DNA from: a virus
Lineage: Duplodnaviria; Heunggongvirae; Uroviricota; Caudoviricetes
Strand: one strand, 5' to 3'
DNA length: 64,000 bases
IMG/VR virus record: IMGVR_UViG_3300028832_000001
Location: 100,007 to 164,006 of that record
The notes beneath the pieces were generated by a model, which saw nothing but the letters and a program-made list of their open reading frames with translations, was not told the origin of the DNA and ran no database searches. The first letter of the stretch is position 1; the number at the start of each line of letters is the position of its first letter. Shown in pieces: positions 3,952-43,986 of this stretch. A program made the translations under genes and the position numbers.

Positions 3952-4959
3952 ATGAAATTAAAACTAGTATATAAATGTGAAATTTGTGGATTAAATGACT
4001 TAAATAAGCGTGGTTTAGGTACACATTTACAATTTAAACATTCTGATATTTCTAAAGAAACATATTATAAAAAATATTTAAAATGTATTGATGAAGATAC
4101 TTGTAAAGTTTGCGGGAAACCAACAAAATTTTTATCATTCAAAGTGGGATTTGCTAATTGCTGTTCAAAAGAATGTAGTAGAAAATGGAATAATAAAAGA
4201 ATACAAGATAGTAATTTAGATAAATTTGGGGTTAAAACACCATTTGAGTTAAAAGAAATACAAGAAAAAGTTAAAAATACAATAAAAGAAAAATACAATT
4301 GTGATAATATATTTCAAGTATCAGAAATAAAAGAAAAAATAAAACGGACATTAAAAGAAAAATATAATGTTGAGTACCCGTTAGAGTGTGAATTTTTTAA
4401 GAATAAAGCAAAAGAAACAACGTTTTTAAGATATGGTAATGAAAATTATAGAAATTCATTAAAAGCAGAAGAAACTTGTTTAAAAAACAACGGGGTTAGA
4501 CATCCGGCACAGTCAGGTATAATTGCGAAAAAAACAAGAAGTAAATATATTTATAATAATATAACATTTGATTCTAGTTGGGAACTTGCATATTATATTT
4601 GGTTAAAAGATCATAATATTAATTTTGAATATCATACAATAAAATTAGAATATGAATTTAATAATAATTTATATTATTATTTTCCTGATTTTTTGGTAGA
4701 AAATGATTTGATAGAAATTAAAGGCGATCAGTTTTTATCGGAAACTGGAAATTTAATTTCACCCTATAAAAATACTAATAATGAAAAATTAATTAAAAAA
4801 TTTGAATGCATGAAAAATAATAATGTAAAAATTATTTCTAAAATAGAAATAAAACCTATTATTTTATATATAAAAGAAAAATATGGAAAAAACTTTTTAA
4901 ATAAATTTAGGGAGAAAAATCAGAATGTTTCAGAAAACTGCAGAACTTCGTGGTCATAA
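3952..4959 (+). CDS. putative free-standing homing endonuclease (N-terminal C2H2/zinc-ribbon pair, tandem ~30-aa basic DNA-binding repeats, C-terminal PD-(D/E)xK-like nuclease)
   Basis: The N-terminus has a CxxC...HxxxH finger and a second CxxC...CC..C cluster. Repeats of the form FGVKTPFELKEIQEKVKNTIKEKYN / IFQVSEIKEKIKRTLKEKYNV follow. The C-terminus (WELAYYIWL...FPDFLV...DLIEIKG) is compatible with a D...(D/E)xK nuclease fold. The 3' end overlaps the terminase ORF by 35 nt. Confidence 0.45.
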   Translation: MKLKLVYKCEICGLNDLNKRGLGTHLQFKHSDISKETYYKKYLKCIDEDTCKVCGKPTKFLSFKVGFANCCSKECSRKWNNKRIQDSNLDKFGVKTPFELKEIQEKVKNTIKEKYNCDNIFQVSEIKEKIKRTLKEKYNVEYPLECEFFKNKAKETTFLRYGNENYRNSLKAEETCLKNNGVRHPAQSGIIAKKTRSKYIYNNITFDSSWELAYYIWLKDHNINFEYHTIKLEYEFNNNLYYYFPDFLVENDLIEIKGDQFLSETGNLISPYKNTNNEKLIKKFECMKNNNVKIISKIEIKPIILYIKEKYGKNFLNKFREKNQNVSENCRTSWS

Positions 4960-5845
4960 TGAGGTCGTAGAATTAACTAAAGAACAAATGGATGAATATG
5001 TAAAATGTTCTACAGATATTTTTTATTTTTCCAAATACTTTTATATTTTAAGTGATGAAGGTGAAGCGCCAATACATTTAAGAGAATACCAAGAACGTAT
5101 AGTTCGCTGTCTTGTTGGAAAATATTATGATAAAGAAGGTTCTATTAGAAATAATAGAATAATAATGCAAGGGCGACAGACAGGCAAGACTACTCTGGCC
5201 ACATTATATATTTTATGGTATGCACTTTTTAATGGAGACAAAACTATCGCTGTTCTGGCTAACAAGGAAGACCAAGCAAAAGAAATTATGTTGAGAATTC
5301 GCTCAGCTATTTTGAAACTTCCACTTTGGTTACAACAGGGAATTAATCCTGATAGAGGCGGTTGGTCAAAAGAAAGTATCGGTTTTGATAATGGAACTAA
5401 GATATTCTGTGCTGCTTCTGGTTCTTCTGCTATTAGAGGTAAATCTGTTGACTTGATGCTTGTCGACGAATTTGCATTCTTGCCTGAAGAAGAAGCTAAG
5501 GACTTTATTAAGTCAGTTTTCCCTACACAATCTGGTAGAAAGGATGCTATGATGATTCTTATTTCTACTCCGCATGGTATGAATGAATTTTATAACATCT
5601 GGATGAAAGCTATTTCTGGTGCAAGTTCTTATGTTCCTGCAAAGATTCAATGGTATGAAATTCCTGGAAGAGATGAAGCTTGGAAGAAGAGAATGATTCG
5701 AGACTTCGGTATTCAGATGTTCCAACAGGAATATGCTTGTTTAACTGGAGAACATAAAATAACAGTTCGATCCGAAGAAGGAATCGAACTAACGGAACCG
5801 ATTTCAAAACTATATGAACTTTGGATGGACGGTTTCTTAAGATAA
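4925..5845 (+). CDS. terL: terminase large subunit, ATPase domain only (T4 gp17 N-domain-like); nuclease domain not encoded contiguously
   Basis: Walker A (QGRQTGKTT) and Walker B (DLMLVDEFAF) are present. The order of blocks (YQERIV..., ILISTPHGMNEFYNIW, FQQEYACLTGE) parallels T4 gp17 residues ~130-360. The ORF stops right after the ATPase domain at a bidirectional terminator. Confidence 0.7.
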   Translation: MFQKTAELRGHNEVVELTKEQMDEYVKCSTDIFYFSKYFYILSDEGEAPIHLREYQERIVRCLVGKYYDKEGSIRNNRIIMQGRQTGKTTLATLYILWYALFNGDKTIAVLANKEDQAKEIMLRIRSAILKLPLWLQQGINPDRGGWSKESIGFDNGTKIFCAASGSSAIRGKSVDLMLVDEFAFLPEEEAKDFIKSVFPTQSGRKDAMMILISTPHGMNEFYNIWMKAISGASSYVPAKIQWYEIPGRDEAWKKRMIRDFGIQMFQQEYACLTGEHKITVRSEEGIELTEPISKLYELWMDGFLR

Positions 5846-7526: not shown

Positions 7527-7636
7527 AAGTTTCGTGTCCCAATACTAGTCTTTTATTATTTATAGTTTAGGGGTTTACAATTATTTTGAAAAATGTTATA
7601 TTTAGGTCAAACACTTAACAAAAAGGAAAAACATCT

Positions 7637-8413
7637 ATGAAAAAAATCTATTCAATCTTTATTATGTTGGCGTTTGCACTCTTTACGGGTTGTACGACAG
7701 TCGACGAAACCGAAAGAGCAGTTGTTCTTGAATTCGGTAAGTACAGCGAAACTTTCGGACCAGGATTGCACTTCTATAATGTGTTCATGAAGAGCATTGT
7801 TACGATTCCCGTCAAAACACAGCTTGAAGCAAGCACATTCGAAGCAGGTTCTAAGGACCTTCAGCAAGTTGTTGTATCGTCAAACGTTAACTATCACGTA
7901 GATCCGCAAGCAGTTGGTAAGGTATATTCGAATTATGGTGTAAATTATGTTCAGACTATTCTTCAGCCTAAAATTAAGGAAACGGTTACGTCTATTACAC
8001 CACAGTATGTCCCTGAAGAAATGTTGCAGAAGCGAGAAGAAATTAATATTAGAATGAAAAATGCATTGAAGGCAAAGCTTGATTCTGCAGATGCACATAT
8101 TGTTATCGATGGTTTTACTGTAACTGGTTTCCAATTTACTCCTGCATTTAATTCTGCTATTGAAGAAAAGCAGGTTGCAGAACAGAAGGCATTGAAGGAA
8201 AAGAACGTTCTTAAGCAGATTGAATATCAGAATGAACAGAAGGTCGCAAAGGCAAGAGCTGATTCTACCGAAATGGCAATTAAGATGGCAACATTGAAGT
8301 CCCAGTCTGGCAAGGAATACTTGATGCTCAAGTGGATTGAAAAGTGGAATGGTCAGTTGCCGAATATGATGCCTGGTGATAACAAGATTATCCCAATGGT
8401 TAATGGACTTTAA
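7637..8413 (+). CDS. SPFH/band-7 (prohibitin/HflC-like) lipoprotein
   Basis: Lipoprotein signal peptide with lipobox (LFTGC). The mature protein begins with an SPFH-type segment (ERAVVLEFGKY...GPGLHF). The C-terminus is a coiled coil (QVAEQKALKEKN...). A promoter-like TATATTTAGGTCAAA lies upstream, and the SD is aaaaggaaaaa. Confidence 0.65.
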   Translation: MKKIYSIFIMLAFALFTGCTTVDETERAVVLEFGKYSETFGPGLHFYNVFMKSIVTIPVKTQLEASTFEAGSKDLQQVVVSSNVNYHVDPQAVGKVYSNYGVNYVQTILQPKIKETVTSITPQYVPEEMLQKREEINIRMKNALKAKLDSADAHIVIDGFTVTGFQFTPAFNSAIEEKQVAEQKALKEKNVLKQIEYQNEQKVAKARADSTEMAIKMATLKSQSGKEYLMLKWIEKWNGQLPNMMPGDNKIIPMVNGL

Positions 8414-24799: not shown

Positions 24800-25948
24800 A
24801 TGGCAGTTAATGAAGATAAAAAATTATCAGATTATGAACTAAAGACTTTGAGAGAGCTTCAACAGTCTAGCAATACAGCATATGTTCCAGCATTTACTGA
24901 AACAGAAAACTATAAATTTGATTCTAAAGAATTAAATGGACAAGTTTTACAGGCTGGAACTAATGTAACTATTGATAATAATAACGTAATTCGTGCTACA
25001 GATACAAAATTAAAAAGTAGTGATAATATTTCTGTTACATCAGATAATAAATTAGTATATACTGGTCCTCAAGGAGAAGGAACAGATCTTGAAGAAGATA
25101 GTACAAATTTATCAATTGGAAGACAATCAGATGGTAAATATAAAGTAAATCTTAATCTTGGCTATGGTTCAGAAGTAGCACAAGTTCATAGCGGTGCAAC
25201 AACTTATAATTGTACTTCTACATTTTTTACTTCTTCAGATGGCGGTAAATCAATAAAAGGTAATTTTGCAGGATTTGTAAATAATGCCATAACATTTGGT
25301 AGAGACCCAAATGAAGGTAATGTTCCAAATAGTAACCTTAATCTTGTTATTAGTGAAGATATTTCTGTGCAATATTGGAATGGTGGTTCAACAGATAGAT
25401 GGATTTTAGCTACTCCAGATGATGTATTATCATTTAAAAAAGTAAATGGAACATATCCACCTTATGCAAGTCGTGTTCGTGGTGATTATTATTCTCAGCT
25501 TATTTTTAATATGCCAAATATTGCTGCATTAACTTTACATACATGGTGGCTTCAACATGTAACTCATAGAGAGAATATTTTTGTTCAAGTTAATATGGGT
25601 GAAAGAATGCATGCATTATATATTTTTAATGGTATTGGCGATGATAATGAAGGTGCAAATTTTTATTTCTATCATAATGGATTAGTATATAAAAAAGAAA
25701 ATGTAAGTAAAGGAACTTTTGTTAATATTGCTAATATAGTTAACTGGAAATTATATACTGATTTATCTGGGTATGGAATTGAAAATGGTGCAGGCAACTC
25801 AAGACTAGTTAATTCATTACCTTTTACAACAAACACTAGAGGTGATGGTCAGGATGAATGGCTGATTTGCACAGTTCAAAGATTTTATTGTATACATGAA
25901 ACAGTTAATAATAAACATAATTATTATTTTATTGAATCTATGTATTAA
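24800..25948 (+). CDS. tail fiber / receptor-binding protein paralog 1
   Basis: 382 aa. Shares an N-terminal module with the next two ORFs (NVTIDNNNVIRATDTKL...DNISVTSDNKLVYTG). The C-terminal domain is divergent. Confidence 0.5.
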   Translation: MAVNEDKKLSDYELKTLRELQQSSNTAYVPAFTETENYKFDSKELNGQVLQAGTNVTIDNNNVIRATDTKLKSSDNISVTSDNKLVYTGPQGEGTDLEEDSTNLSIGRQSDGKYKVNLNLGYGSEVAQVHSGATTYNCTSTFFTSSDGGKSIKGNFAGFVNNAITFGRDPNEGNVPNSNLNLVISEDISVQYWNGGSTDRWILATPDDVLSFKKVNGTYPPYASRVRGDYYSQLIFNMPNIAALTLHTWWLQHVTHRENIFVQVNMGERMHALYIFNGIGDDNEGANFYFYHNGLVYKKENVSKGTFVNIANIVNWKLYTDLSGYGIENGAGNSRLVNSLPFTTNTRGDGQDEWLICTVQRFYCIHETVNNKHNYYFIESMY

Positions 25949-25957
25949 TGAGGATTT

Positions 25958-27091
25958 ATGGGAAAAATTAAAAGAAAGAAATTGTCATCATTTGAAACTA
26001 AAACACTATCTGAATTAAAAGAAATGGATGATAGAGGTAATAGCGTTTATATCCCATATATTCAACCTATTGACAATAACTATAAGCATGAAATTTCAGA
26101 ATGTGCAGAAAAATTAACTGCTGGTGAAAATATTCAGATAACTAACGAAGGGAGAGTAAACGCTACTGACACCCGTTATGTTGCTGGCGATAATATTGAA
26201 ATTAGTTCTGATGGAAAAGTGTCTTATGTAGGTGATGCTCCACAAACATATGCAACAGGAAGAGGATTAAGATTAACAAATAATACTAATATTTTAGCAT
26301 TAAACCTAGAAACAGATGGTGGGTCAACGTTTACATCGCAATATGGTTCAAAATTATCGCCTGTTACATTTAAAAATAATTACACATTAGAATTAGCTGG
26401 AAATGCAATGGATTCACTTTTTGTTCAAGTTGCAGATAGTGATAGAACCGACGGTTATAAAGTAATATGTTTAGATAATGATGGAATTACATTAAGAACT
26501 TCTTTAACTGCTACTGATACTAAAAAATATTATTGCACAAATGGTACTACTCGTGCTTGGTATAAATCCGCACAACAACCGTCAGGATATACAAAAATAA
26601 GAACATCTGATTATACTCATTTTGCTATTGATGTAGGAAATATTGGTCTATTATCAATGTCTGCTTTATTTTTACAAAGTCATAATAATAGAGAAACAAT
26701 TATTAATATGTTAAATAGAACAAGTGATAAAGAACCTGATTTAATACTTGTAAATGATACGTCATATAAGGCTGATGCATTTATATATGAACAAGGTTTA
26801 TTATCAGGTGCTACTAATATAAGTTTAAATACATCATCTGCAAATTATGCAACTATTGCAAAATTTGAAAACTCACAAAATAAATGGGTATCGTCATTTA
26901 CTCCTAATTATTATATTAAGACTGATGGAACGACACGTGTTGCATTACCGCCATTTTGTGGAAATGTTTTATCAATGGTAAATGGTAGTACATATACTGG
27001 CTTATTTTCTACACTTAGATTTATTCCAGCTGTTTCACTAGATACAACAAATTCAAAAACAACTATATCAATGGTATCAATGGAGTATTAA
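25958..27091 (+). CDS. tail fiber / receptor-binding protein paralog 2
   Basis: 377 aa. The N-terminal ENIQITNEGRVNATDTRYVAGDNIEISSDGKVSYVG aligns with paralog 1. The C-terminus is divergent. Confidence 0.5.
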   Translation: MGKIKRKKLSSFETKTLSELKEMDDRGNSVYIPYIQPIDNNYKHEISECAEKLTAGENIQITNEGRVNATDTRYVAGDNIEISSDGKVSYVGDAPQTYATGRGLRLTNNTNILALNLETDGGSTFTSQYGSKLSPVTFKNNYTLELAGNAMDSLFVQVADSDRTDGYKVICLDNDGITLRTSLTATDTKKYYCTNGTTRAWYKSAQQPSGYTKIRTSDYTHFAIDVGNIGLLSMSALFLQSHNNRETIINMLNRTSDKEPDLILVNDTSYKADAFIYEQGLLSGATNISLNTSSANYATIAKFENSQNKWVSSFTPNYYIKTDGTTRVALPPFCGNVLSMVNGSTYTGLFSTLRFIPAVSLDTTNSKTTISMVSMEY

Positions 27092-27094
27092 ATT

Positions 27095-28633
27095 ATGGCA
27101 GGATGGAAACAAAATAATAAAAATGAATTAGTAAAATTAAATAGTTATAGTAAAACTGATACTACGGATGCCGAGATACCTGTTGTTATTCCAGATGCAG
27201 GTAAAAATGCAAGATTTAAAGTTACTGATTTAGCTCCTGTATATAAAGATGATGAAAATAATTGTCTTAAAATCGAAGATGGTGTTATTTCTAAAACAGA
27301 CACAACATATCAGTCAGGTGATGATGTTATAAAAGTTAATACTGTTGGTAATGAAAATATTATTAGTTGTGATGGTTTTGGTGGTAAAAAATATGTTGCA
27401 GGAACAGCAATCCAAGTAACTGAAACTACTAATACTACCACTAATAAAGCAACATTTTCAACGCTTAAATCCTCAGAAGATAAATTGATGGGTAATATCC
27501 AAACCTATCAAAAACATCAACCTACTTACAGAAAAAATAGTAAAACAGAATTTGCTGGTTTTGCCAATTTATATGGTGTTATTGGAGACCCATGGTGGTC
27601 AGAATCATCACCAAATTCATATACAACAATTGCTAGAATTTCTGGTGGCAGAATTCATTGTTATAATAGTCAAATACAAGAAAAAACATATTATATAAAT
27701 GGTGATACTTCATCAGATGGATTATATAAATTTAATCAATATGCAATACATATGGCACGTGTTGGTGGTATATATGTAGATTATGCTTTTTTAACAAATC
27801 ATTTTAATCGTGAATTATATATTTCAAGAACATATACTCAATTTGATGCTAATCAAGGATCAAATTATGGTTGTAAATTTTATATAACAGAAAATTCTGG
27901 AAGTACTCGTAGACTTAGAGTTATAATTTATTCATGCGGTTATATTTGTGAAGGTTATTCAACTTCAAGCAATCCAGAAATTTGTTTACAAGATATTTGT
28001 TATTGGAATTGGTCTAATGGCCAAAATGGAAATAGTTTTAATTATATATTAAGACCAATAGATTCTTCATATAAGTTAAGAGATTATGGTTATAATGCAG
28101 TTTCTGTTCCAATAGAAAATGATGGCGGTGGACATGCTTTTATTACTGGAGGGATATGGCAGCTTGATAAATATTATGATTCAAATAATATACCATGTAC
28201 AGTAATGAATGATACATGGACAGAATTTGACTATACATGGTCATATAGTCAAACTGTTGGTTGGCGGCCTCAAATAGTACCAGGAACAGGTGTATCATAT
28301 AGCGCGCCAAAAACTATAACACAATATTCTAATTTTTATAAAACAGCAGATCCTCGTTATAATTATTGGCAAACAGCAAATAAAATTAGAACAAAATATT
28401 GTTATAATACAGATGTTGCAACAATAATGACCCTATCTCCTGATAATGCAAATTATGGTAAATATTCAACAATTTTACATGAAGGTGAAGTTCATAGAAA
28501 TTTTAATGAAGTATGTCCAATCTCATATGATGAATATTTTTCTAGTTTTAAATTTATGGTTAATGGATATGGCGTAACAACAGTAAATGGTAAAGATTAT
28601 GATACTGTTTATTTAGTTGATATGAGAAACTAA
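27095..28633 (+). CDS. tail fiber / receptor-binding protein paralog 3
   Basis: 512 aa. CLKIEDGVISKTDTTYQSGDDVIKVNTVGNENIISCDG aligns with paralogs 1 and 2. The large C-terminal domain is Trp/Tyr-rich and divergent. Confidence 0.5.
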   Translation: MAGWKQNNKNELVKLNSYSKTDTTDAEIPVVIPDAGKNARFKVTDLAPVYKDDENNCLKIEDGVISKTDTTYQSGDDVIKVNTVGNENIISCDGFGGKKYVAGTAIQVTETTNTTTNKATFSTLKSSEDKLMGNIQTYQKHQPTYRKNSKTEFAGFANLYGVIGDPWWSESSPNSYTTIARISGGRIHCYNSQIQEKTYYINGDTSSDGLYKFNQYAIHMARVGGIYVDYAFLTNHFNRELYISRTYTQFDANQGSNYGCKFYITENSGSTRRLRVIIYSCGYICEGYSTSSNPEICLQDICYWNWSNGQNGNSFNYILRPIDSSYKLRDYGYNAVSVPIENDGGGHAFITGGIWQLDKYYDSNNIPCTVMNDTWTEFDYTWSYSQTVGWRPQIVPGTGVSYSAPKTITQYSNFYKTADPRYNYWQTANKIRTKYCYNTDVATIMTLSPDNANYGKYSTILHEGEVHRNFNEVCPISYDEYFSSFKFMVNGYGVTTVNGKDYDTVYLVDMRN

Positions 28634-29313
28634 TGAATATAGTAGTAATTAATAAAAATCAAGAAGATAAAATTAATTTAATTGAAGACAAGATACATGA
28701 GTTTAATCATGTATTTTGTTTTGATAGATATAAACCAGATACAACAGTTCCAGCTGTTTATAATACAGAAGGAACTGGATTCTTGGCAGGTAAATGTAGA
28801 GACATCGGTGCAGCATATTTTGACTATAAAGGAGATTTCTTATTTCTTGATGGCGATAAAGTTCCAGAAGGCGATTTGAATATTATTCCTGAAATCGGTG
28901 CTGCCTGTGTTTTACTCGGTGTTGGTAAAAATGATCATCGTCAATTTATGCAGCAAGAAAATATAACGAAAGAATATAATTGGGATGAAGGTTTCGATTG
29001 TAAAAATCCGTTAAATTTTGTATATAGTTGTGGTATTTATCTTTCTCAGAAAGCAGTAGACTTAATGAGGAAAATAAACGGCGGTAGGATATTTCATCCT
29101 TGTTTTGATGGAACTTGGGGTGATGAAGACCGTTGGATTGGTGATGTTTTAGGTTTTTATAAAATTCCGATTTTTTATACTACAAAGGTAACACTGTCTG
29201 GACATATTACTTCTACTAGAGATGACCCGATGTCAGAAAAAGCACAGAATTTACACATAAACATGATAAAACGAATTCATTTGAGACAGGAAAAGTTGGG
29301 ATTACAGTTCTAA
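28633..29313 (+). CDS. hypothetical protein (possible small GT-A-like transferase or fiber accessory protein)
   Basis: 226 aa. FLFLDGD (DxD-like). Start overlaps the upstream stop. Confidence 0.25.
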   Translation: MNIVVINKNQEDKINLIEDKIHEFNHVFCFDRYKPDTTVPAVYNTEGTGFLAGKCRDIGAAYFDYKGDFLFLDGDKVPEGDLNIIPEIGAACVLLGVGKNDHRQFMQQENITKEYNWDEGFDCKNPLNFVYSCGIYLSQKAVDLMRKINGGRIFHPCFDGTWGDEDRWIGDVLGFYKIPIFYTTKVTLSGHITSTRDDPMSEKAQNLHINMIKRIHLRQEKLGLQF

Positions 29314-29350: not shown

Positions 29351-30637
29351 ATGAATTTAAGTGAAGCAAGAGATATTCTCGGTAAATGTGGATATTCATT
29401 TTTGAAAGAATCTACAGAATTAACCAGAGATATTATGCTTAAATATGCTAAGCAATTAGCACAGCAAAATGATAAAATTGGTATTATCAAGGGAAAAAAC
29501 CCAGAAGATGGTGATTTTGATATAATCATTTATTATAATAATGATAAGATTAAAGTTGCATCATATAAAGGTTATGAAAATGAAGTTTATGTAAGGGAAT
29601 TCAAGAGTTCTTTATCTGGAATGCCAGCAAAGAAAGTTGAAACCTTAGAAGATTTACGTTCATATATTGATTCTACATTGAAATATATGGAAAAATATAA
29701 AGAAGACAACAATAATCAATACAAAACAAGTGTCGAAGATATTGAAAAAGATAAGGAAGAATGGGCTAACAACATGGATCAAAACGAGTCATTAAAACTT
29801 AAAAAAGCATTACAGTTCCTTGCTGAATGCGGTTATACAATTAGTAAAAATACAAGAATTGATGAAATGTCTCGTGCATCTGACCGTGTTCTTGGTCATG
29901 ATTCTGCAGAAAACTTGCTTTATATGCTTGCTGACTGGAAGAAACAGTATGACAGAACTGGTAAGAATGCTACATTAGGTCAATTTGCCAAATTTGTTCA
30001 AGATAATGGCATTAGTTGGGACTTAATTAGTGGTCTCAGCTTACCAGGATTACCAAGAACAGAACCTCCTACACGTTCATCTAGGAGAATTGATTTGGAA
30101 GCTATTATTGCTTCTTTACAAGGTCAGCTTGGACAAGATGTTAGCGATGTTCGTAACCGTGTTGATTTAGGTAAGGATGATTACGATAGATTAATCGACA
30201 CCTTCTGGGATTATTATGAAAAGAACCGTGATGGTGAAGATGTTTCTGCACTTGTTGATTCTGAAAATTTCCAGGCACTCATTAGATTGTTTGCTGAAGA
30301 ACCAGAAACTGCACAGGAAGTCTTTGGTAGAAACTATGACAAGGCTAATAGCAAGTTACAGAGATTTATTAATCCTGATTCCGCAGCTGCTTTGATTGGC
30401 GAATTCTGGGATTGGTATTATGCTAAGAAGGCTGGTCGTGACATTGACTTCGATCCAGAAAAGGCAGAAAAGATTGCAGACTTGCTTGAAACCCCGAATG
30501 CTAAGGATGAAATTTTCGGCGGTAACGGTTCTTACTATACTGTTCTTAGAACAATTAGTAACATTGTTGGTAGACAGCTTGGTCAGAGAGATGCAGACTT
30601 CGATTACGATTCTTTGAATGGTGATTTGAGCCTCTAA
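29351..30637 (+). CDS. late protein with N-terminal SAP/HeH-like motif (MNLSEARDILGKCGYSF) and an internal second copy
   Basis: 428 aa. The N-terminus matches the motif family of the 50.7-53.1 kb paralogs. A second copy lies at ~aa 150 (LKLKKALQFLAECGYTI). The rest is helical and acidic. Confidence 0.5.
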   Translation: MNLSEARDILGKCGYSFLKESTELTRDIMLKYAKQLAQQNDKIGIIKGKNPEDGDFDIIIYYNNDKIKVASYKGYENEVYVREFKSSLSGMPAKKVETLEDLRSYIDSTLKYMEKYKEDNNNQYKTSVEDIEKDKEEWANNMDQNESLKLKKALQFLAECGYTISKNTRIDEMSRASDRVLGHDSAENLLYMLADWKKQYDRTGKNATLGQFAKFVQDNGISWDLISGLSLPGLPRTEPPTRSSRRIDLEAIIASLQGQLGQDVSDVRNRVDLGKDDYDRLIDTFWDYYEKNRDGEDVSALVDSENFQALIRLFAEEPETAQEVFGRNYDKANSKLQRFINPDSAAALIGEFWDWYYAKKAGRDIDFDPEKAEKIADLLETPNAKDEIFGGNGSYYTVLRTISNIVGRQLGQRDADFDYDSLNGDLSL

Positions 30638-30670
30638 TATATCGTTTCAGACAACATTAAATAAAAAGGG

Positions 30671-30699
30671 TTGACGGCAGTCACCCTTTTTGCTATATT
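30671..30699 (+). promoter_or_regulatory. sigma70-like promoter TTGAC-N18-TATATT embedded in conserved element AAAAAGGGTTGAC...CTTTTTGCTATATTTAGG
   Basis: -35 TTGAC at 30671-30675, spacer 18 nt, -10 TATATT at 30694-30699. An almost identical element recurs at 39083-39118. Confidence 0.5.
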
Positions 30700-30726
30700 T
30701 AGGAAAAACTTACAAGGAGATATAAA

Positions 30727-31218
30727 ATGATAGTAATCGCTTGGACGATTGTTGGTTTAACTGCACTTTTCATTATCTGCAGCTGCATAAAGAGTTGCGT
30801 CAGAATGGCAACAATGGAACGCTTTAAAAACGTTCCCATTCAGACACCTACCTTAATTGCAGATAAGAATAAGATTATTCAGTCATTATTTGATGATGAC
30901 GCTGAAAAGTTTTTCAAATATAAAGGTATAACATTCTGGTATTATAAGGATTCAAAGGATTACTTTGAAAAGCAGAGTTTTAGTGTTGCTGATGTAAAGA
31001 ATAAGATTGCACAGAAGTATGATGAACTCAAACAAGAACATCCAGGAATTACAGATTTTTTTGTTTCCATGACAAAACAAAATAATTATTTGACATGGGA
31101 ATTTGATCCGATTGACTTAAACTCTTATGTTCCGCCAAAGTCAACTAAGGATATTTGTATCGATGAGCTTAACAAATTAATAGAAAACAATGAAATAAAG
31201 GAAAAACATGACATCTAA
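30727..31218 (+). CDS. small membrane protein co-transcribed with flotillin (possible NfeD-like partner)
   Basis: 163 aa with an N-terminal TM helix. Stop overlaps the flotillin start. Confidence 0.35.
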   Translation: MIVIAWTIVGLTALFIICSCIKSCVRMATMERFKNVPIQTPTLIADKNKIIQSLFDDDAEKFFKYKGITFWYYKDSKDYFEKQSFSVADVKNKIAQKYDELKQEHPGITDFFVSMTKQNNYLTWEFDPIDLNSYVPPKSTKDICIDELNKLIENNEIKEKHDI

Positions 31219-32806
31219 TATGATCTACCCAATACTTATCGGAATTGCAGTAATTGCTTTAAGTATTCTCTTTTTTGCGTCTTATATCAAAGCCGCACCA
31301 GATGAAGTTAAAATCATCTCTGGTTTCCGACAACTAAGGACAATTATCGGACATTCAGGATTTAGAATTCCGTTCCTTGAGCAAGTCGATACTTTAAGCT
31401 TAAAGCTTATTCCAATCGATGTTAAGACCTCCGGTATTCCAACGTCAGATTATATTAATATCGCAGTTGATGCAGTCGTTCAGGTCAAAATTTCTGATGA
31501 AACTGCTGATATTAAGGTTGCTGCACAGAACTTCTTAAATAAGAATCCAGATGAAATTAAGAAGATGATTAGTGAAGTTCTTGAAGCAAACATGAGAGAG
31601 ATTGTTGGTCAAATGGAACTTGTCAAGCTTGTTAATGACAGACAACAGGTTTCTAAGAAGGTTCTCGAAAATGCTTCTCCAGACTTAAAGAAACTCGGTA
31701 TTGTTATTCAAACATTTAATATTCAGAACTTCTCTGATTCAGCAAAGGTTATTGAAAACCTCGGTGTTGACAAGGCAGTTGCAATTCAGAAAGCAGCAGC
31801 AATTTCTAGGGCCAATGCAGAAAGAGACGTTAAGATTGCTCAGGCAGAAGCAGCTAAGGAAGCAAACGATGCACAGGTTGCATCTAACCTCGAAATCGCA
31901 CAGAAGCAAAACGACTTAGAAGTTAAGAAGGCTGACCTTAAGAGAATTTCCGATAGCAAGAAGGCTGAAGCTGATGCCGCTTACGAAATTCAGAAGCAAG
32001 AACAGCAAAAGACCATTAACATTGCAGCTGCAGCAGCTGAAGTTGCAAAGCAGGAAAAACAGATTGAAATTCGTGAAAGAATGGTAGCTGTTAGACAGAA
32101 GGAACTCGAAGCTGAAATCCAGAAGAAGGCAGAAGCAGAAAAGCAAGCACAAATTCAGAAGTCTGATGCTGACCTTTATAGACAACAGAAGGAAGCTGAA
32201 GCAGCACTCTTCACACAGAAGCAACAGGCTGAAGCTATTAAGGCTAAGGCTGAAGCTGATAAGCAAAAAGCATTCGCTGAAGCTGCAGCAACTAAGGCTA
32301 AGGGTGAAGCAGAAGCTGATGCTGTAAAGGCTAAGGGTCTTGCAGAAGCAGCAGCACTTGACCAGAAGGCTGAAGCTATGAAGAAGTATGGTGATGCAGC
32401 AAGACAGGAAATGCAGCTCAGAACTATTGAAAAGTATTTCGAACAGTTACCAGCTATTGCAAGTGCCGTTGCAAAACCGATGGAAAAGATTGGCAATATC
32501 AATATGTATGGTGAAAGCGGTACAGCTAAGCTCACTGGCGATATTACCAAGACACTTACACAAGTTTCTAGTGGTTTAACTGATTCTCTTGGTATTGATC
32601 TTAAGACTGTTCTCGGTTCTATGTTCGGTGCACATCTTGCTGGACTCGAAAAGAAACCGTCGCAGGTCCCTGTTGAAGTTGCAAAGAACGATCCAGCAGT
32701 TCCAGCTACCCCAGCTCAGGCTACTCCAGTAGAATCTCCGGTTCAAATGTCTGAATCTGATATTGAACAGGCAGCAGCAGCATTTCTTAGAAAGCGTAAG
32801 CACTAA
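31208..32806 (+). CDS. flotillin-family SPFH protein (FloT/YuaG-like)
   Basis: N-terminal TM/hairpin helix, then an SPFH domain. A long Ala/Glu/Lys/Gln coiled-coil region (AEAEKQAQIQK...AEAIKAKAEADKQKAFAEAAATKAKGEAEADAVKAKGLAEAAA) is typical of the flotillin C-terminus. 532 aa. Confidence 0.7.
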   Translation: MTSNMIYPILIGIAVIALSILFFASYIKAAPDEVKIISGFRQLRTIIGHSGFRIPFLEQVDTLSLKLIPIDVKTSGIPTSDYINIAVDAVVQVKISDETADIKVAAQNFLNKNPDEIKKMISEVLEANMREIVGQMELVKLVNDRQQVSKKVLENASPDLKKLGIVIQTFNIQNFSDSAKVIENLGVDKAVAIQKAAAISRANAERDVKIAQAEAAKEANDAQVASNLEIAQKQNDLEVKKADLKRISDSKKAEADAAYEIQKQEQQKTINIAAAAAEVAKQEKQIEIRERMVAVRQKELEAEIQKKAEAEKQAQIQKSDADLYRQQKEAEAALFTQKQQAEAIKAKAEADKQKAFAEAAATKAKGEAEADAVKAKGLAEAAALDQKAEAMKKYGDAARQEMQLRTIEKYFEQLPAIASAVAKPMEKIGNINMYGESGTAKLTGDITKTLTQVSSGLTDSLGIDLKTVLGSMFGAHLAGLEKKPSQVPVEVAKNDPAVPATPAQATPVESPVQMSESDIEQAAAAFLRKRKH

Positions 32807-32919
32807 TAAGAAATAGATTAAATAAAAAGATCAGACTTATGTCTGGTCTTTTTGTTGTATTTTTAAAAAATTAAAATATTTTTACATTTAATAAATAAGA
32901 AAATAGAAAAATACTATAT

Positions 32920-39177: not shown

Positions 39178-42100
39178 ATGAAAAAGATAATCGGAATATT
39201 ATTAGTTTTAGCTGCATTTGTTTTTTCTGCAGACTATAAGCCGTTTAACTTTGAAACTATCCCACAAGATTCTGCAAGTCAACAGGATCAATTTGATTAT
39301 ATGCTTCAATATAAGTTATATGGTCATGATTTTATCAAAATGGGAAATGATGTTCGTATTCCAGACAAGTCAGGTTGGAATGGTACTGTAGGTAATATTA
39401 CTTCTAATGCAAGATTGACCTTGGGCGGTCCGATTCTTGCAAATGGTAGTATTTCTATGGGTGATGGTCCAAATAATATTACTGGACCAGTTCGCTCAGT
39501 CGATTTTGATCTTGGAAATGTAAATAATTCCAAAATCGCAAGCCCTGTTTGCTTAAGCGGAACCGCAAATGCTAATGCATTGTCTGCGATTGAAGATCAT
39601 AAGACTTATTCTTTCGATGCAAACATTTGTAAGGACAGCGTTCCTGCTGCACCTACAAATCTTTATATGCCGATTGTTGATTGGGATAATCTTGGTGCTG
39701 ATGTTAAGTTGGATGATATTGTTTTAAGTGGCAATGATGCTACAGATACTATTTTTGTTCCTAAAGGTGAAGGCGCATATAAGATTTTAATTGATAAGAT
39801 TCAGTTTGGCCTTGGCGGAACTAATGCAAGCCATTTGTATGTTAAGATGCAAGATGGCGGTAGATTGACCCAGATTTTCGTAAAGAATTTTATTTATGGA
39901 AATCATGCTACAATTCAGGTTGTTTATGATACTGACAGTGGAAGCGTAGTATTGAATCAGGACCAATATCGTGGTAACTTGATGTTCTATTCTAATAATG
40001 TTATCAGTTTTGATAATATGGACTATGCTCCTATTCAAGGTTCATTTATTTCTACTGATTCAATTTTCTTGGGAAGAAACGTTAATATTTCTGGTCAGTT
40101 ATTGACTAATAAGCTTGAAATTGGAAATGATATTGATGGTAAAAACTTCAGATTTGTTAAATTCGACCCTGATACAATCGATGTTAAGCTTGATAAGTAT
40201 GGTGGTTTGAGAGAAAATGATTCTACTGTTATTATTCCTATTGAACTAAGTGATACTGCTACTATCGCTGTATATTTTAGATATTGTTTTGATTTGAAAG
40301 ATGGTGTAACTGTTGAAGATTTTAATATTCCGCCTACATTCCCTATTTGTAACATCGATCAACCGAAAGAAGTATCTATTCCTATCGGTTCAAAGATTCC
40401 AAGTGATCCAATTAAGGTAAATGTTAAAGTCGATACATTGACAGAAAATGAATATCTTGTAATTAAGATTGATAGCATTTCTGGTGCTATTCTTCCTGAT
40501 GGTAAGACTGAAGGAGAATTAAAGATTAAGATTATTGACGCTCCTATTGGACATGTTGAATTTGATACTACAAAGACATATGAGTTTGAGGAAAATAAAC
40601 TTGGTGAAGTAGATGTAATCAAGATTTTAAATGGAACTGAAAATACTCGTTTCCATCTTGATAGTGCATATACTGATAGATATGAATTGGATAGCTTGAC
40701 TGGTAAGTTGACACTTATTGGTGAACCATTAGATTATGAAAAGGCTGCAATCGATGTTATTAAGGTTACATTGACTGATACTGGCAATGTAAGTGTAACT
40801 CGTAATATTCCTATTACAGTAATTGACGTTAATGAAGCACCTACTATCGATGATGTAACTGCTAATCTTCCGGAAAATCTTATTCATCCATTCATGGTTG
40901 AAAAGTTAGTTGCAAAAGATCCAGATACTAAGACAACATTTACTCAAAATGTTTTCAGTATGCTTGAAGGTGATACAAGCTTATTTAGAGTAGATTCTGA
41001 TGGTGAAATTTGGGCAAAGAAGACATTTGACTATGAAACTGATCAGAAAACCTATACTTTGAAGGTTTTGGTTCATGATAAGACTAATCCAGCATTGAAG
41101 GATAGTGCTATTGTTACTGTTAATATCACAAACAGCAATGATGGTCCTAAGTTTGACAGAAATGATACTACATTCCATGTAAATGAAAATGAACCATTTA
41201 AGGATAGTGTAAAGGCAACTGACCAGGATGGTGATAAGATTACTTATTCTATCATTGGAAGTGTTCCATTCAAAATTGATTCTACTGGCGTAATTACTTC
41301 TACTAGAACATTTGACTATGAAAAAGAAAAAGAATTTACATTCAAGGTCATTGCTGATGATGGTAAAGCAAAAGATACAATGACTGTAAATATTATAGTA
41401 GACAATGTAAATGAGCCTGTTCATACCAAAGATACAACTTTTGTTGTAGATGAAGGTAAAACTGGTGAAATCGGTAAAGTCAAAGGAGAAGATGAAGATG
41501 GAAAGCCTGTTAAATTTTCTTGCGATGATAGTGTGCATTACAGCATCGATACTAATACTGGTATTCTTAGACTGGTAGACCCATTTGACTATGAGATTAC
41601 AAAATCTGATACCATAAAGGTATTTGTTACTGATAGTCTATTTACAGATACTGCCATAGTTATTATTAATGTTAATAATGTAAATGAACCTCCTGTATTA
41701 CAGCCAAATGATTCTCTTACAGTTCCAGAAAATTGTAAGAATTGTATTGTTGGTATTATTACAGCAGTTGACCCTGACAGTGATAAGGTAATTTACGAAG
41801 TTAAGGAACCTGGTTTCACAATCGATACAAATGGAGTATTAAAGCTCACTGATCCTCTTGATTATGAGAAAACTCCAGAAGTTAAGATTACAGTTATTGC
41901 AAAGGATTCTAGTGGCGCAGCTGATACTGCCACCTATATAATTAAGATAACTGATATTAATGAACCAGTCCATGTTCAAGATACAACTTGTTCTGTAAAG
42001 GAAAATTATACTGGTAAGGTTTGCAAGATTACAGCAACTGATGAAGATAAAACAACTCCTAAATATATAATTACCGATACTACAAATTATTCTATCGATT

Positions 42101-43986
42101 CTACTGGTGTAATTACTATTAAGAACCCGATTGATTATGAAAAGAAGACTAAGGACACAGTAACTGTTATTGTAACTGATGACGAATTTTCTGATACCGC
42201 ACAGGTAATTATCAGAGTTCTCGATGAACCTGAAAAGGTTGAAATTACCACATGGGATGATGAAAAGCCTAAAGATACAGTAAAGACAAATGACCCAGAT
42301 CATAAGTTCGAATGGGAACTTTGTGAAGGTGATAGCTGTATTAAGCATGAAGAATTTCCGCATATCAAGAAAGATACAACTATCAAGGTATGTAATGATA
42401 AGAAGACTGTTTGTGATTCAGTTGTAGTTTTATTCAATGATGCACCTCCAGTTGTTACTTTGACAAATGCAAAGTCTACTGATGCATTGATTGACTATAT
42501 TACAATCGAAGAACAGAAGGACGATAAGATTTATGTCAACAAGAAAGAAAATCCAATTACTGTAACTGTTAGAGATACTGTTCATAAGACAGAAAAGAAA
42601 TTTGATATTAAAGTTAAGCTTGATACAATTCCTACTAAGGATATTAAGATTAAGGAATATAACTACTTGATTGATGAATCTCTTGCAACTCATACAGCAA
42701 TAGGTAACAATCTTATTGAAGTTTCTGAAGTTATTTCTGTTGACGGTAATAAGATAACAATTTCTAAGATTGTTGATAAGAAGACAATGGAACCAATCGA
42801 TACAGTTCAAACTGTTACTTATCATAAGAAGGTTGGTGGTAAGGACGTAGTTGTTTCTTATAAGACTGATAATCTTACTGGTCAGAGAGTTTCTGATTAT
42901 GAAATTTCTTACATGGCTGATTCTTGCACTAAGGTTACATATACTGTAAATGATAAGAAGGAAATTGTTAAGAATAAGGAAGGAAATATTGCATATAATA
43001 TCACTTATGATTATGTAGATGATTTTGGTAACAAAGCATCTGCATCAGTTGAAATTATCTTCGACGATATTCCGCCTAAGGTTGAAATTCTTGGACCTGG
43101 TCCAATGGAACATTTCAATACAAATGCAATTCCAGTTAAGTGGACAGTTAATGGCGAAACACAAGATACTTTGACATTACAGAGACTTGAAAAAGGTGTT
43201 AACTATATTATCAGAAGATATGTAGATAAGGCTGGTAACGTCGCTGCTGATACAGTCACAGTTCTTATGAATGAAGCCAAGGATATTGATATTGAAATTA
43301 TCAATCCAGTAACCAAGGTTGACCAGGATAAAGTTGATGAATATTATTCTGAAGGTCATAAGTATAATGATAAGAAACCGTTTGACGTCAAGTTTGTTGA
43401 CCCGAAGAACGATACAATTCCAGATGTAATTGGTGTTGGTTTCAAGGTTGATATTGTACTTCCGTCTGTTTCTCCTACTGGTTCTCTTGCAACATTGGAT
43501 GACATTGTAAAGAATGGTCAGATTCCAGTTGATGATAAGGGAAATATCGTTGGTGCTTCTACAAAGGGAATTCCAGTAGATAAGTATGTTGAAGAACATT
43601 GTACTGAAGAATTCCAGAAGGATTACGATAAGTATGGTTTGAATATTCCGCTTTATGACGTTACTTATAAACTTCATCTTTGGGTATATACAACTACTGC
43701 AAACTATGTAAATGATTTTAATATTGAATTTACATTGAATGATGAAGCTAAGACTACTACAGCAGGAACTGTCCAGATGGTTATCGACTGGTTGTCTGAT
43801 AAGGATGGAAACGTCAAGGCTAAGAACCATCATGCTTTAGGAACAGGCGCATATATAACCAAGTTGTTCAGCACTTCTGTTGCAAAACACCGTTGTGATT
43901 ATAAGGATCAAGTTAAGGGTGATAGAACTGTAAAGAAGGATGAAACAATGAAAACATTTGGTTATAAGCGACCAAACAACAAGTAA
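39178..43986 (+). CDS. giant secreted protein with multiple cadherin-like repeats
   Basis: Signal peptide (MKKIIGILLVLAAFVFSA). At least six domain junctions carry cadherin-type linker motifs (VIDVNEAPTI, NSNDGPKF, DNVNEPVHT, NVNEPPVL, DINEPVHV, LDEPEKV). Each is preceded by ...DYE(K/T)... blocks. 1602 aa. Confidence 0.6.
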   Translation: MKKIIGILLVLAAFVFSADYKPFNFETIPQDSASQQDQFDYMLQYKLYGHDFIKMGNDVRIPDKSGWNGTVGNITSNARLTLGGPILANGSISMGDGPNNITGPVRSVDFDLGNVNNSKIASPVCLSGTANANALSAIEDHKTYSFDANICKDSVPAAPTNLYMPIVDWDNLGADVKLDDIVLSGNDATDTIFVPKGEGAYKILIDKIQFGLGGTNASHLYVKMQDGGRLTQIFVKNFIYGNHATIQVVYDTDSGSVVLNQDQYRGNLMFYSNNVISFDNMDYAPIQGSFISTDSIFLGRNVNISGQLLTNKLEIGNDIDGKNFRFVKFDPDTIDVKLDKYGGLRENDSTVIIPIELSDTATIAVYFRYCFDLKDGVTVEDFNIPPTFPICNIDQPKEVSIPIGSKIPSDPIKVNVKVDTLTENEYLVIKIDSISGAILPDGKTEGELKIKIIDAPIGHVEFDTTKTYEFEENKLGEVDVIKILNGTENTRFHLDSAYTDRYELDSLTGKLTLIGEPLDYEKAAIDVIKVTLTDTGNVSVTRNIPITVIDVNEAPTIDDVTANLPENLIHPFMVEKLVAKDPDTKTTFTQNVFSMLEGDTSLFRVDSDGEIWAKKTFDYETDQKTYTLKVLVHDKTNPALKDSAIVTVNITNSNDGPKFDRNDTTFHVNENEPFKDSVKATDQDGDKITYSIIGSVPFKIDSTGVITSTRTFDYEKEKEFTFKVIADDGKAKDTMTVNIIVDNVNEPVHTKDTTFVVDEGKTGEIGKVKGEDEDGKPVKFSCDDSVHYSIDTNTGILRLVDPFDYEITKSDTIKVFVTDSLFTDTAIVIINVNNVNEPPVLQPNDSLTVPENCKNCIVGIITAVDPDSDKVIYEVKEPGFTIDTNGVLKLTDPLDYEKTPEVKITVIAKDSSGAADTATYIIKITDINEPVHVQDTTCSVKENYTGKVCKITATDEDKTTPKYIITDTTNYSIDSTGVITIKNPIDYEKKTKDTVTVIVTDDEFSDTAQVIIRVLDEPEKVEITTWDDEKPKDTVKTNDPDHKFEWELCEGDSCIKHEEFPHIKKDTTIKVCNDKKTVCDSVVVLFNDAPPVVTLTNAKSTDALIDYITIEEQKDDKIYVNKKENPITVTVRDTVHKTEKKFDIKVKLDTIPTKDIKIKEYNYLIDESLATHTAIGNNLIEVSEVISVDGNKITISKIVDKKTMEPIDTVQTVTYHKKVGGKDVVVSYKTDNLTGQRVSDYEISYMADSCTKVTYTVNDKKEIVKNKEGNIAYNITYDYVDDFGNKASASVEIIFDDIPPKVEILGPGPMEHFNTNAIPVKWTVNGETQDTLTLQRLEKGVNYIIRRYVDKAGNVAADTVTVLMNEAKDIDIEIINPVTKVDQDKVDEYYSEGHKYNDKKPFDVKFVDPKNDTIPDVIGVGFKVDIVLPSVSPTGSLATLDDIVKNGQIPVDDKGNIVGASTKGIPVDKYVEEHCTEEFQKDYDKYGLNIPLYDVTYKLHLWVYTTTANYVNDFNIEFTLNDEAKTTTAGTVQMVIDWLSDKDGNVKAKNHHALGTGAYITKLFSTSVAKHRCDYKDQVKGDRTVKKDETMKTFGYKRPNNK

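Follow-up and report, generated by a model that had tools for sequence, protein, structure and literature searches.

Flotillins of the FloT/YuaG type, such as FloT of Bacillus subtilis and YqiK of Escherichia coli, combine an N-terminal anchor, an SPFH/Band_7 domain, an Ala/Glu-rich coiled coil, and a Flot domain. What flotillins do in bacteria is a matter of continuing debate. On the structural side, eukaryotic flotillin-1 and flotillin-2 form a solved 44-subunit cage (PDB 9l3g, 9bq2), which is the source of the cage model used here. SPFH proteins are also recurrent phage cargo, as phrog_200 and the annotated phage flotillins of csAssE-Sib (OR575929) and Vibrio phage KIT04 (LC487410) show. 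The flotillin described here shares the FloT-type domain order, yet it is encoded by a lytic-type T4-like phage and has no associated NfeD gene.

The window—the whole 64,000-nucleotide stretch of DNA that was analyzed—is from an uncultured T4-like jumbo phage of rumen or ruminant gut metagenomes and encodes the phage hallmarks UvsX, DnaB, a gp32-like SSB, NrdD, a tail sheath stabilizer, and TerL. Within it, the flotillin gene is located inside a conserved replication module, outside the variable accessory islands, and both of its flanks carry T4-like hallmark genes. The synteny of this locus is common to rumen contigs (L005–L007) and to IMG/VR viral contigs of up to 411 kb; related contigs are called viral by IMG/VR. 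For relatives of 405 to 469 kb, an identity as bacterial chromosomes was considered and is disfavored by gene content, by a common LemA–263–136–flotillin module, and by IMG/VR viral calls for relatives of 348 to 424 kb, all of which make megaphages the probable identity. The flotillin locus comprises the following features.

30662–30692, plus strand: hairpin (A-tract, stem, T-tract), −15.2 kcal/mol, z = −4.3, 0/200 shuffles as stable
30671–30699, plus strand: predicted sigma70-like promoter TTGACG-17-TATATT with TG before the −10, 10/12 matches
30714–30719, plus strand: Shine–Dalgarno sequence AAGGAG, 7 nt upstream of the partner ATG
30727–31218, plus strand: partner gene, 163 aa, ATG start
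31198–31202, plus strand: flotillin ribosome-binding site AAGGA within the partner ORF, sequence AAGGAAAAACATG
31208–32806, plus strand: flotillin gene, 532 aa, ATG start
32654–32803, plus strand: phage-specific C-terminal extension of the flotillin, residues 483–532, a Pro/Ala/Val-rich linker with the end AAAFLRKRKH
32821–32856, plus strand: intrinsic terminator, 16-bp stem then T-run, −21.3 kcal/mol, z = −7.3

The initial annotation had named the 532-aa protein a flotillin, and a Pfam profile search bears this out: Band_7 (PF01145; E = 6.7e-23, 82.1 bits versus a cut-off of 23.6, residues 31–205) and Flot (PF15975; E = 1.5e-10, 41.6 bits versus a cut-off of 27, residues 368–443) both score above their curated cut-offs. 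The presence of an SPFH domain speaks against a coiled region of some unrelated family, the outcome that would have overturned this naming. Residues 28–466 are colinear with human flotillin-1 (9l3g_A, E = 1.3e-50), covering the SPFH domain, the coiled coil, and the C-terminal region. The NCBIfam FloT model NF058507 is matched end to end (7.7e-75) with 252.7 bits, which is under its 700-bit equivalog cut-off; hence, the protein is a member of the flotillin family but no FloT orthologue. Likewise, the Ala/Glu-rich coiled coil expected from the annotation is present at residues ~206–400 (26% Ala, 15% Lys, 13% Glu, and 12% Gln), as judged by composition and by colinearity with the coiled coil of flotillin-1. 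Two minus-strand ORFs of 116 and 124 aa within the flotillin gene are Leu/Ser/Cys/Phe-rich mirror frames of this coil and were rejected as non-genes. Whereas flotillin-1/2 are anchored by acylation or a hairpin, the phage flotillin bears a hydrophobic N-terminal segment (best 19-mer at residues 9–27, mean Kyte–Doolittle 2.65), which might form a hairpin or a full transmembrane (TM) helix. Being encoded by a single gene, it presumably assembles into a homo-oligomer, in contrast to the hetero-oligomer of flotillin-1/2.

The conserved C-terminal region extends to residue ~482. Fibrobacter chromosomal flotillins stop ~10 residues past a conserved SMFGAKLAGV motif, whereas the phage protein continues into a linker of 45 to 60 aa with a polybasic tip. 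This extension is present in all phage-clade copies inspected and ends in RKRKH or RKRKR, in RRRRR, in the K/R-rich tips RKNGRNK and NKFKPNR, or in RKLPWE.

A search of 50,697 phage records brought up flotillin relatives in just 9. A megablast search of the locus against the same records gave no match, and no record of the exact flotillin protein was found. The annotated phage flotillins named above share 27 to 28% identity with it in the SPFH part, and among PHROGs only phrog_200 is matched, weakly and over coiled-coil residues 337–420 (2e-4, 21.6 bits). The flotillin is under purifying selection (dN/dS of 0.08 to 0.13) throughout a clade of jumbo and mega-sized phages, and its position is kept in lineages spanning 32% to 52% GC. 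In a comparison with the related contig L001, it is 77% conserved versus 62 to 65% for the neighboring primase-like and exonuclease genes. Clade-wide purifying selection together with a conservation above that of neighboring replication genes argues that the scaffold directly benefits infection fitness.

The two ORFs overlap by 11 nt, such that the flotillin ATG lies inside the partner ORF and the partner stop codon (31216–31218) overlaps the flotillin start region. Translational coupling of the two genes is supported by a flotillin ribosome-binding site that falls within the partner ORF. Ahead of the unit, the anticipated sigma70-like promoter was found at 30671–30699, where the 10/12 match is complemented by an extended −10 TG. 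Among three 10/12 sites between 29 and 34 kb, it alone lies between genes on the coding strand with TG ahead of the −10. Across the window, 13 of 41 sites with at least 10/12 matches are intergenic, compared with an intergenic share of 7.2% of bases (binomial P = 3.6e-6), and the flotillin promoter belongs to a recurrent intergenic motif TT(T/G)ACA-N16/17-TATATT; judged from these sequence features, the site would function as a promoter. Its −35 hexamer sits within the hairpin at 30662–30692, which probably terminates the upstream 428-aa gene and whose sequence is identical in the related contigs L005, L091, and L008. Directly 3′ of the flotillin stop codon, the terminator at 32821–32856 closes the two-gene unit. 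From this anatomy—promoter, ribosome-binding sites, overlap, and terminator—we infer that partner and flotillin are cotranscribed.

As a whole, the locus is probably best explained as an early two-gene unit, in which a Fibrobacter-derived flotillin with a scaffold role is joined to a phage-specific partner. The specific mechanism of scaffolding and membrane maintenance is offered more tentatively, as a possibility that falls short of being likely. The pair would be transcribed early by the host sigma70 RNA polymerase, with coupled translation. Both proteins have no K/R before their N-terminal helix and three to four K/R after it; by the positive-inside rule, both might insert via this hydrophobic helix and keep their soluble parts cytoplasmic. 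Oligomerization through the coiled coil could set up an SPFH dome at the cytoplasmic membrane of the host, on its inner face—fencing a membrane patch—and a high-order membrane assembly of this type is suggested by homology to the flotillin-1/2 structure. At this patch, the partner would likely act as a client or regulator. The linker and its polybasic tip would be found at the dome cap, as a possible binding site for acidic lipid, nucleic acid, or some other component of the phage. The likely gain would be a membrane that is kept organized and energized during the long infection by a jumbo phage, or a membrane platform under phage control. The phage flotillin also provides a natural gain-of-function system in which the roles of SPFH assemblies can be studied.

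A second SPFH gene is encoded further upstream in the window.

7574–7602, plus strand: sigma70-like promoter TTTACA-17-TG-TATATT, of the motif class of the flotillin promoter, upstream of the second SPFH gene
7637–8413, plus strand: second SPFH gene, a prohibitin-like lipoprotein of 258 aa, Band_7 1.9e-33, lipobox LFTG-C

Its lipobox was called by sequence pattern in the signal peptide MKKIYSIFIMLAFALFTGC, which bears two Lys, a hydrophobic core, and F-T-G-C, the Phe at −3 being atypical. The initial annotation had described an HflC-like lipoprotein. A second SPFH lipoprotein does exist; the protein is a prohibitin-like member of phrog_200 'lipoprotein' (2.5e-43, residues 2–256) and stays under the HflC/HflK equivalog cut-offs (TIGR01933, 50.1 versus 159.4 bits; TIGR01932, 24.2 versus 134.4 bits). 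Prohibitin 9urz is matched with 1.6e-19, and solved HflK structures are also among the matches. In the proposed mechanism, this exported protein might act alongside the flotillin from the opposite membrane face.

Both SPFH genes are probably expressed early from sigma70-type promoters, which would also suit a function in conflict, that is, superinfection exclusion or a membrane shield against depolarizing abortive-infection effectors. The same holds for the exported SPFH lipoproteins forming a large phage family (phrog_200), for the variable gene neighborhood with strain-specific insertions, and for a role in adsorption or entry, on which a phage-genome paper speculates (PMC13239085). However, PADLOC models searched with the flotillin, its partner, the second SPFH protein, and the 428-aa neighbor yielded no meaningful match or defense-system assignment (best E = 7.7e-4, 16.5 bits). 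The flotillin, moreover, belongs to the conserved replication module and is more conserved than its neighbors, which is unusual for fast-evolving conflict genes. A conflict role is, hence, regarded as unlikely.

HflK/C forms a cage around FtsH, and B. subtilis flotillins associate with FtsH. By this precedent, phage SPFH assemblies could cage or relocate the host FtsH or another membrane protease and so stabilize phage proteins—a thought in line with the HflK structures and the weak HflK/HflC model matches obtained for the second SPFH protein. These matches, however, are far under cut-off and confined to the generic SPFH core, the flotillin is not HflK/C-like, and the surroundings of both SPFH loci yielded neither a gene nor a motif related to FtsH. 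We consider protease control rather improbable as the explanation of the locus; it is compatible with the scaffold reading as one possible client, not as a true alternative.

Like NfeD, YuaF, and YqiJ, the partner is a small membrane protein encoded directly upstream of, and overlapping, an SPFH gene. An analogue of the NfeD–flotillin operon, whose partner binds the flotillin C-terminus via an OB-fold as in YuaF/YqiJ, would account for this position, for the 11-nt overlap under a single promoter and terminator, for a soluble domain of ~130 aa after an N-terminal TM helix, and for co-conservation with the flotillin in the closest relatives—partner and flotillin adjoin and overlap in the window, L005, and L091. 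Nevertheless, the partner shows no NfeD signal (PF01957) and no sequence similarity to NfeD, and the OB fold suggested by the annotated NfeD position gave way to an alpha/beta fold with no OB barrel in an alignment-based AlphaFold run; a single-sequence run (pLDDT 53) was set aside. Unlike NfeD, YuaF, and YqiJ, it is a predicted bitopic protein with one conserved N-terminal TM helix, roughly residues 2–24, and a soluble alpha/beta domain. A membrane-spanning N-terminal part is common to the partner and NfeD, but it is a generic trait. The cellular flotillins nearest to the phage one are adjoined neither by NfeD nor by any other partner of this kind. Such an operon analogue is, thus, very unlikely, and it is virtually certain that the window encodes a real phage-borne flotillin whose partner is not NfeD. 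A Foldseek comparison of the partner with viral structures returned nothing significant (best E = 0.15); the partner is a lineage-specific phage orphan.

The adjacency of the two genes is itself derived, not ancestral. In L001, L089, and L092–L097, LemA (PF04011, phrog_1383) and the two-TM protein phrog_3886 lie between a probable partner homologue and the flotillin. The sister-lineage order is, hence, partner homologue, LemA, phrog_3886, and flotillin—a four-gene membrane-protein module. As the partner homologue of these relatives is separated from the flotillin, the two-gene unit of the window, from which LemA and phrog_3886 are absent, is derived and reduced. Pfam scans of the module proteins of relatives (263, 246, 168, 136, and 122 aa) gave sub-threshold matches only. 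A bactofilin-like protein is also found in the sister lineages. LemA and the phrog_3886 protein might, like the partner, be clients or regulators at the membrane patch of related phages. That flotillin, polybasic tail, partner, LemA, phrog_3886, and bactofilin-like protein constitute a dedicated phage membrane-organizing module is a highly doubtful extension of the scaffold reading. If true, Fibrobacter jumbo and megaphages would build a membrane platform or compartment, tethering, for example, replication machinery, assembly machinery, or DNA to a fenced membrane patch; this would be the bacterial-virus counterpart of the raft-based platforms of eukaryotic viruses.

The best cellular matches of the flotillin are ~25 Fibrobacter MAG loci with 65 to 71% identity, followed by others at 45 to 49%. 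These Fibrobacter flotillins adjoin panD, in a locus of 50% GC. Phage, Fibrobacter, and allied flotillins form one clade with 100% bootstrap, within which monophyly of the phage copies receives 44%; therefore, a single capture is not claimed from the tree alone. Most likely, the flotillin was captured long ago from a Fibrobacter-like host. The gene has a total GC of 41% versus 31% in its flanks, with GC1 at 0.57 and GC3 at 0.31, the latter equal to the GC3 of core phage genes. The gene is compositionally ameliorated, and recent horizontal transfer was rejected because the GC excess sits in GC1—reflecting the Ala/Glu content—while GC3 is typical of the phage. That the flotillin is a recent neutral host passenger, or the region bacterial DNA, as its raised GC and near-identical or related contigs in Methanobrevibacter, Fibrobacter, and Prevotella MAGs might suggest, is hardly credible given the phage-like GC3, the low dN/dS, the position kept across lineages of such different GC, the T4-like hallmarks on both sides, the IMG/VR viral calls, and a two-phylum contig that points to a binning artefact.

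The named cellular relatives of the second SPFH gene are also Fibrobacterota, and chromosomal. Together with the Fibrobacter-shared ancestry of the flotillin, this affinity provides a host lead for uncultured rumen jumbo and megaphages. No tRNA genes for host assignment are present in the window. A Fibrobacter host, taken together with a Fibrobacter origin of the flotillin, appears reasonably likely. Among fibre degraders, Fibrobacter is a key genus. The literature surveyed offered no description of jumbo or mega-sized phages of Fibrobacter; rumen-virome papers do mention the genus. In public databases, contigs nearly identical to the window appear under 'Methanobrevibacter' MAGs, while the MAGs of Fibrobacter and Prevotella hold related ones. 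The binning of one contig into two different phyla points to a binning artefact, and these phage contigs are mis-binned into the MAGs of all three genera.

The 532-aa protein is, judged from its sequence, a genuine flotillin; its reading frame and that of a 163-aa membrane protein (the partner) lie exactly where the initial annotation had placed them. The elements of this two-gene unit, together with a second SPFH gene, are:

7637–8413, + strand: second SPFH protein, 258 aa (Band_7 1.9e-33)
30662–30692: hairpin after the 428-aa gene (RNA fold −15.2 kcal/mol, z = −4.3)
30671–30699: sigma70-like promoter found by sequence scan (TTGACG, 17 nt, TG, TATATT)
30714–30719: ribosome-binding site AAGGAG, 3′ of the promoter
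30727–31218, + strand: partner, 163 aa
31208–32806, + strand: flotillin, 532 aa
32821–32856: terminator with a 16-bp stem, after the flotillin stop (−21.3 kcal/mol, z = −7.3)

Pfam Band_7 (residues 31–205, 6.7e-23) and Flot (residues 368–443, 1.5e-10) both pass their curated cut-offs, the NCBIfam FloT model spans the protein end to end (residues 12–472, 7.7e-75), and residues 28–466 are colinear with human flotillin-1 (1.3e-50; 9l3g, the solved 44-subunit flotillin-1/2 assembly). The FloT equivalog level is not reached (253 bits versus the 700-bit NCBIfam cut-off). A strongly hydrophobic segment occupies residues 9–27, and the Ala/Glu-rich coiled coil described initially is borne out by residues 206–400 (26% Ala, 15% Lys, 13% Glu, 12% Gln). 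A generic coiled coil without SPFH domain is ruled out by Band_7 at residues 31–205. Fibrobacter flotillins stop within about 10 residues of the conserved SMFGAKLAGV motif, whereas phage-clade copies run 45–60 residues past it—an extension that, by sequence comparison of the copies inspected, is specific to the phage proteins. It consists of a linker rich in Pro/Ala/Glu/Lys and a tip, which is the polybasic AAAFLRKRKH in the window, RRRRR in several sister lineages, and RKLPWE in a subgroup of 50% GC.

The partner, on the other hand, is not the NfeD counterpart that the initial annotation took it for. None of 21 family members matched NfeD even at E ≤ 10, and an AlphaFold model from the family alignment (residues 45–135 at pLDDT 80–92; order H, EE, H, H, EE, H) predicts an alpha/beta fold, unlike the all-beta OB barrel of NfeD. 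Hence, the NfeD-operon framing should go. The partner has no match in Pfam, PHROG, NCBIfam, or PADLOC, and its family profile matched no PDB sequence. Family members are few (43 clusters at 56–98% identity; only 9 matches among 1.84 billion representative proteins), and the N-terminal TM helix is conserved among them; versions of 137 aa reflect gene-caller start choices, as the full ORF exists in the near-identical contig L005. With a dN/dS of 0.11 against L005, the partner is thus a real, constrained gene.

A comparison of 30-odd related loci places the unit in a wider context. The common layout (L001, L089, L092–L097) reads dUTPase, 428/438-aa protein, 164–168 aa TM protein, LemA (PF04011, phrog_1383), 246-aa protein (two TMs; phrog_3886, full-length match 3e-47), flotillin, primase-like protein, and PD-(D/E)XK exonuclease. 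A subgroup of about 50% GC (L088, L098, L010; contigs of 348–468 kb) encodes CCA-adding enzyme, LemA, a 263-aa and a 136-aa protein, and flotillin. In the lineage of the window, L005, and L091, the flanks are unchanged and LemA and the 246-aa gene are missing; homologues of the two were found nowhere in the window. The partner and the 164–168 aa proteins are reciprocal best matches (phmmer about 1e-4; hhalign E 9.5e-5, probability 59%, 93 columns) and have architecture and syntenic slot in common. Taken together, the shared flanks, the missing genes, and this homology are most simply read as a two-gene unit reduced from a four-gene membrane-protein module, with the partner–flotillin adjacency being secondary—a reading that is moderately supported, since the partner homology signal is weak.

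Some of these loci carry further genes. The 136-aa protein immediately upstream of flotillin (L088:9578-9988, L098:7503-7913) shows repeated GDV/SG motifs, a phrog_3163 match (9.6e-15), and a sub-threshold bactofilin-like Pfam signal (E 0.053), and may be a polymer-forming partner. In L001 (3771–4970, − strand) and likewise in L002, an IS605-family TnpB (OrfB_IS605, Cas12f-like TNB domain) sits between LemA and the 246-aa gene; the TnpB-carrying related phage contig measures 175 kb. Flotillin contigs of 350–470 kb (L088, 468 kb; L098, 348 kb, IMG/VR; L095, 411 kb; L099, 424 kb) bear phage-like content—NAPRTase, NMNAT-NUDIX, and isochorismatase for NAD salvage, a CCA-adding enzyme, and arrays of small paralogue-sized ORFs—and several are classed viral by IMG/VR. 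These contigs may stem from megaphages akin to that of the window.

At the nucleotide level, the partner follows a 428-aa gene ending at 30637, the promoter −35 hexamer is contained in the hairpin, and the flotillin ATG, preceded by AAGGA, lies 11 nt within the partner ORF. The promoter–terminator cassette has the same sequence in L091 and in the mis-binned phage contig L008, and differs in L005 by one base outside both hexamers and hairpin. A simple scan of the 5 kb around the locus gave no excess of promoter sites (17 versus 18.9 in shuffles); over the whole window, sites of ≥10/12 cluster intergenically (13 of the 41 fall in the 7.2% of bases that are intergenic; binomial P = 3.6e-6). Given this anatomy, enrichment, and conservation, co-transcription and early expression are well-founded inferences. 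A recurrent form, TT(T/G)ACA-N16/17-TATATT, stands immediately 5′ of several genes, the two SPFH genes among them (intergenic at 7574, 12855, 14032, 15992, 30671, 39090, and 44027 on the + strand, and 63192 on the − strand), and is probably the early-promoter class of this phage.

The second SPFH protein had been called an HflC-like lipoprotein. SPFH domain and lipobox stand (signal peptide ending LFTG|C), as does clear membership in phrog_200 'lipoprotein' (2.5e-43); the likeness to HflC holds less well. HflK and HflC equivalog cut-offs are not reached, HflK matches only at about 1e-4 at the N-terminus, and prohibitins are closest among solved structures (1.6e-19), so that by sequence 'prohibitin-like SPFH lipoprotein' fits better. 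Genes of this kind have been remarked in phage-genome papers and left unexplained (PMC13239085). Named cellular relatives are from Fibrobacterota only: a Fibrobacter copy adjoins SurA, NadB, and CvpA inside an apparent integrated element, and a Chitinispirillia copy is close to dnaA, dnaN, and rpoD.

For flotillin, a search of bacteria and archaea (one genome per species) gave as best cellular matches—mis-binned phage contigs aside—about 25 Fibrobacter MAG loci at 65–71% identity, followed by a sharp fall to 45–49% (Streptococcus, Treponema). The Fibrobacter genes have about 50% GC and a conserved chromosomal setting adjoining panD; no NfeD neighbour was found at the nearest cellular flotillins. 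Phage and Fibrobacter flotillins, joined by a few metagenomic sequences without assignment, make up one clade in an NJ tree (bootstrap 100%), with the core Fibrobacter group at 100% and phage-copy monophyly at only 44%. These matches, the tree, and the relatives of the second SPFH gene point, indirectly, to a Fibrobacter-like host. A separate IMG/VR phage group (L100–L115; contigs of 92–196 kb, about 32% GC) with flotillins of 45–53% identity branches elsewhere (74%), which suggests independent gain in other large phages. In three of these contigs, flotillin is preceded, about 2.4 kb upstream, by a pair of LemA and phrog_3886-like genes, hinting at a recurrent association.

The gene is not a recent passenger. 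Its dN/dS is 0.08 against L005 and 0.13–0.18 against L092 and L094, it is kept across phage lineages of 32% to 52% GC, and between the window and L001 lineages it is 77% identical versus 62–65% for the adjacent primase-like and exonuclease genes. A recent transfer, as might be read from the total GC (41% versus 31% in the flanks), is ruled out: GC3 is 0.31, equal to UvsX, gp32, and NrdD, and the excess sits in codon position 1 (0.57) owing to the Ala/Glu content. Among 50,697 phage records, only 9 hold flotillin relatives (two of them annotated 'flotillin family protein'); a pattern-limited scan of IMG/VR yielded 26 contigs. The literature searched contained no study on the function of a phage-encoded flotillin and no paper joining Fibrobacter, phage, rumen, and jumbo. 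The protein adds a member to a known family; its carrier is unusual, and its tail and neighbours are lineage-specific.

Flotillin and partner alike have no K/R before the hydrophobic helix and 3–4 just after it; by the positive-inside rule, their soluble parts would be cytoplasmic. Going by the solved homologous assembly, flotillin would oligomerise via the coiled coil and form a dome on the host membrane's inner face, with the phage-specific tail at or near the cap. A plausible role for the partner, as for LemA and phrog_3886 in sister phages, is that of an enclosed client or regulator, and the outer face would be where the prohibitin-like lipoprotein acts. The gain to the phage may lie equally well in a membrane kept organised and energised through a long jumbo-phage cycle, in a platform for phage machinery, in the exclusion of competitors, or in control of a membrane protease.

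By gene content, the window belongs to a large T4-like myovirus: it encodes UvsW-like helicase, UvsX, DnaB, gp32-like SSB, NrdD, tail sheath stabiliser, and a terminase fragment beside a homing endonuclease. The homing-endonuclease-like ORF (3952–4959) overlaps and directly precedes a 306-aa ORF (region 3952–5845) matching large terminase in its C-terminal part only, which suggests that terL was split or invaded by a mobile endonuclease. No close relative was found among 50,697 deposited phage genomes; near-identical contigs come from rumen and ruminant-gut metagenomes (L005–L007, L091). Partner-bearing contigs reach 244–297 kb, so the genome is jumbo-sized. Two contigs of 173–191 kb were deposited within 'Methanobrevibacter' MAGs, an archaeal label against which stand bacterial-type promoters, the lipobox lipoprotein, and T4-like replication genes, and which is best explained by composition-driven mis-binning. 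Window copies of 98% identity occur in two 'Methanobrevibacter sp.' MAGs (JAFRFB010000097, JAFQXD010000042), L008–L011 are mis-binned phage contigs in public MAGs, and a Fibrobacter and a Prevotella MAG share one LemA-263-136-flotillin locus, its ORF layout and GC identical between the two copies.

Between dUTPase and the 428-aa gene, 24800–29313 (+) holds four ORFs (382, 377, 512, and 226 aa) that neither Pfam nor PHROG matches; GC3 is about 0.10 in the first three, versus 0.23–0.35 in neighbours. By composition, this block is a distinct insertion; it is missing from L005 and present in L008 and L091, and thus strain-variable. At 39178–43986 lies a 1602-aa ORF without PHROG match, which may encode a large adhesin-like or fibre protein, since a 1781-aa gene of L005 at the matching downstream locus end—equivalent by position alone—carries cadherin-like repeats.
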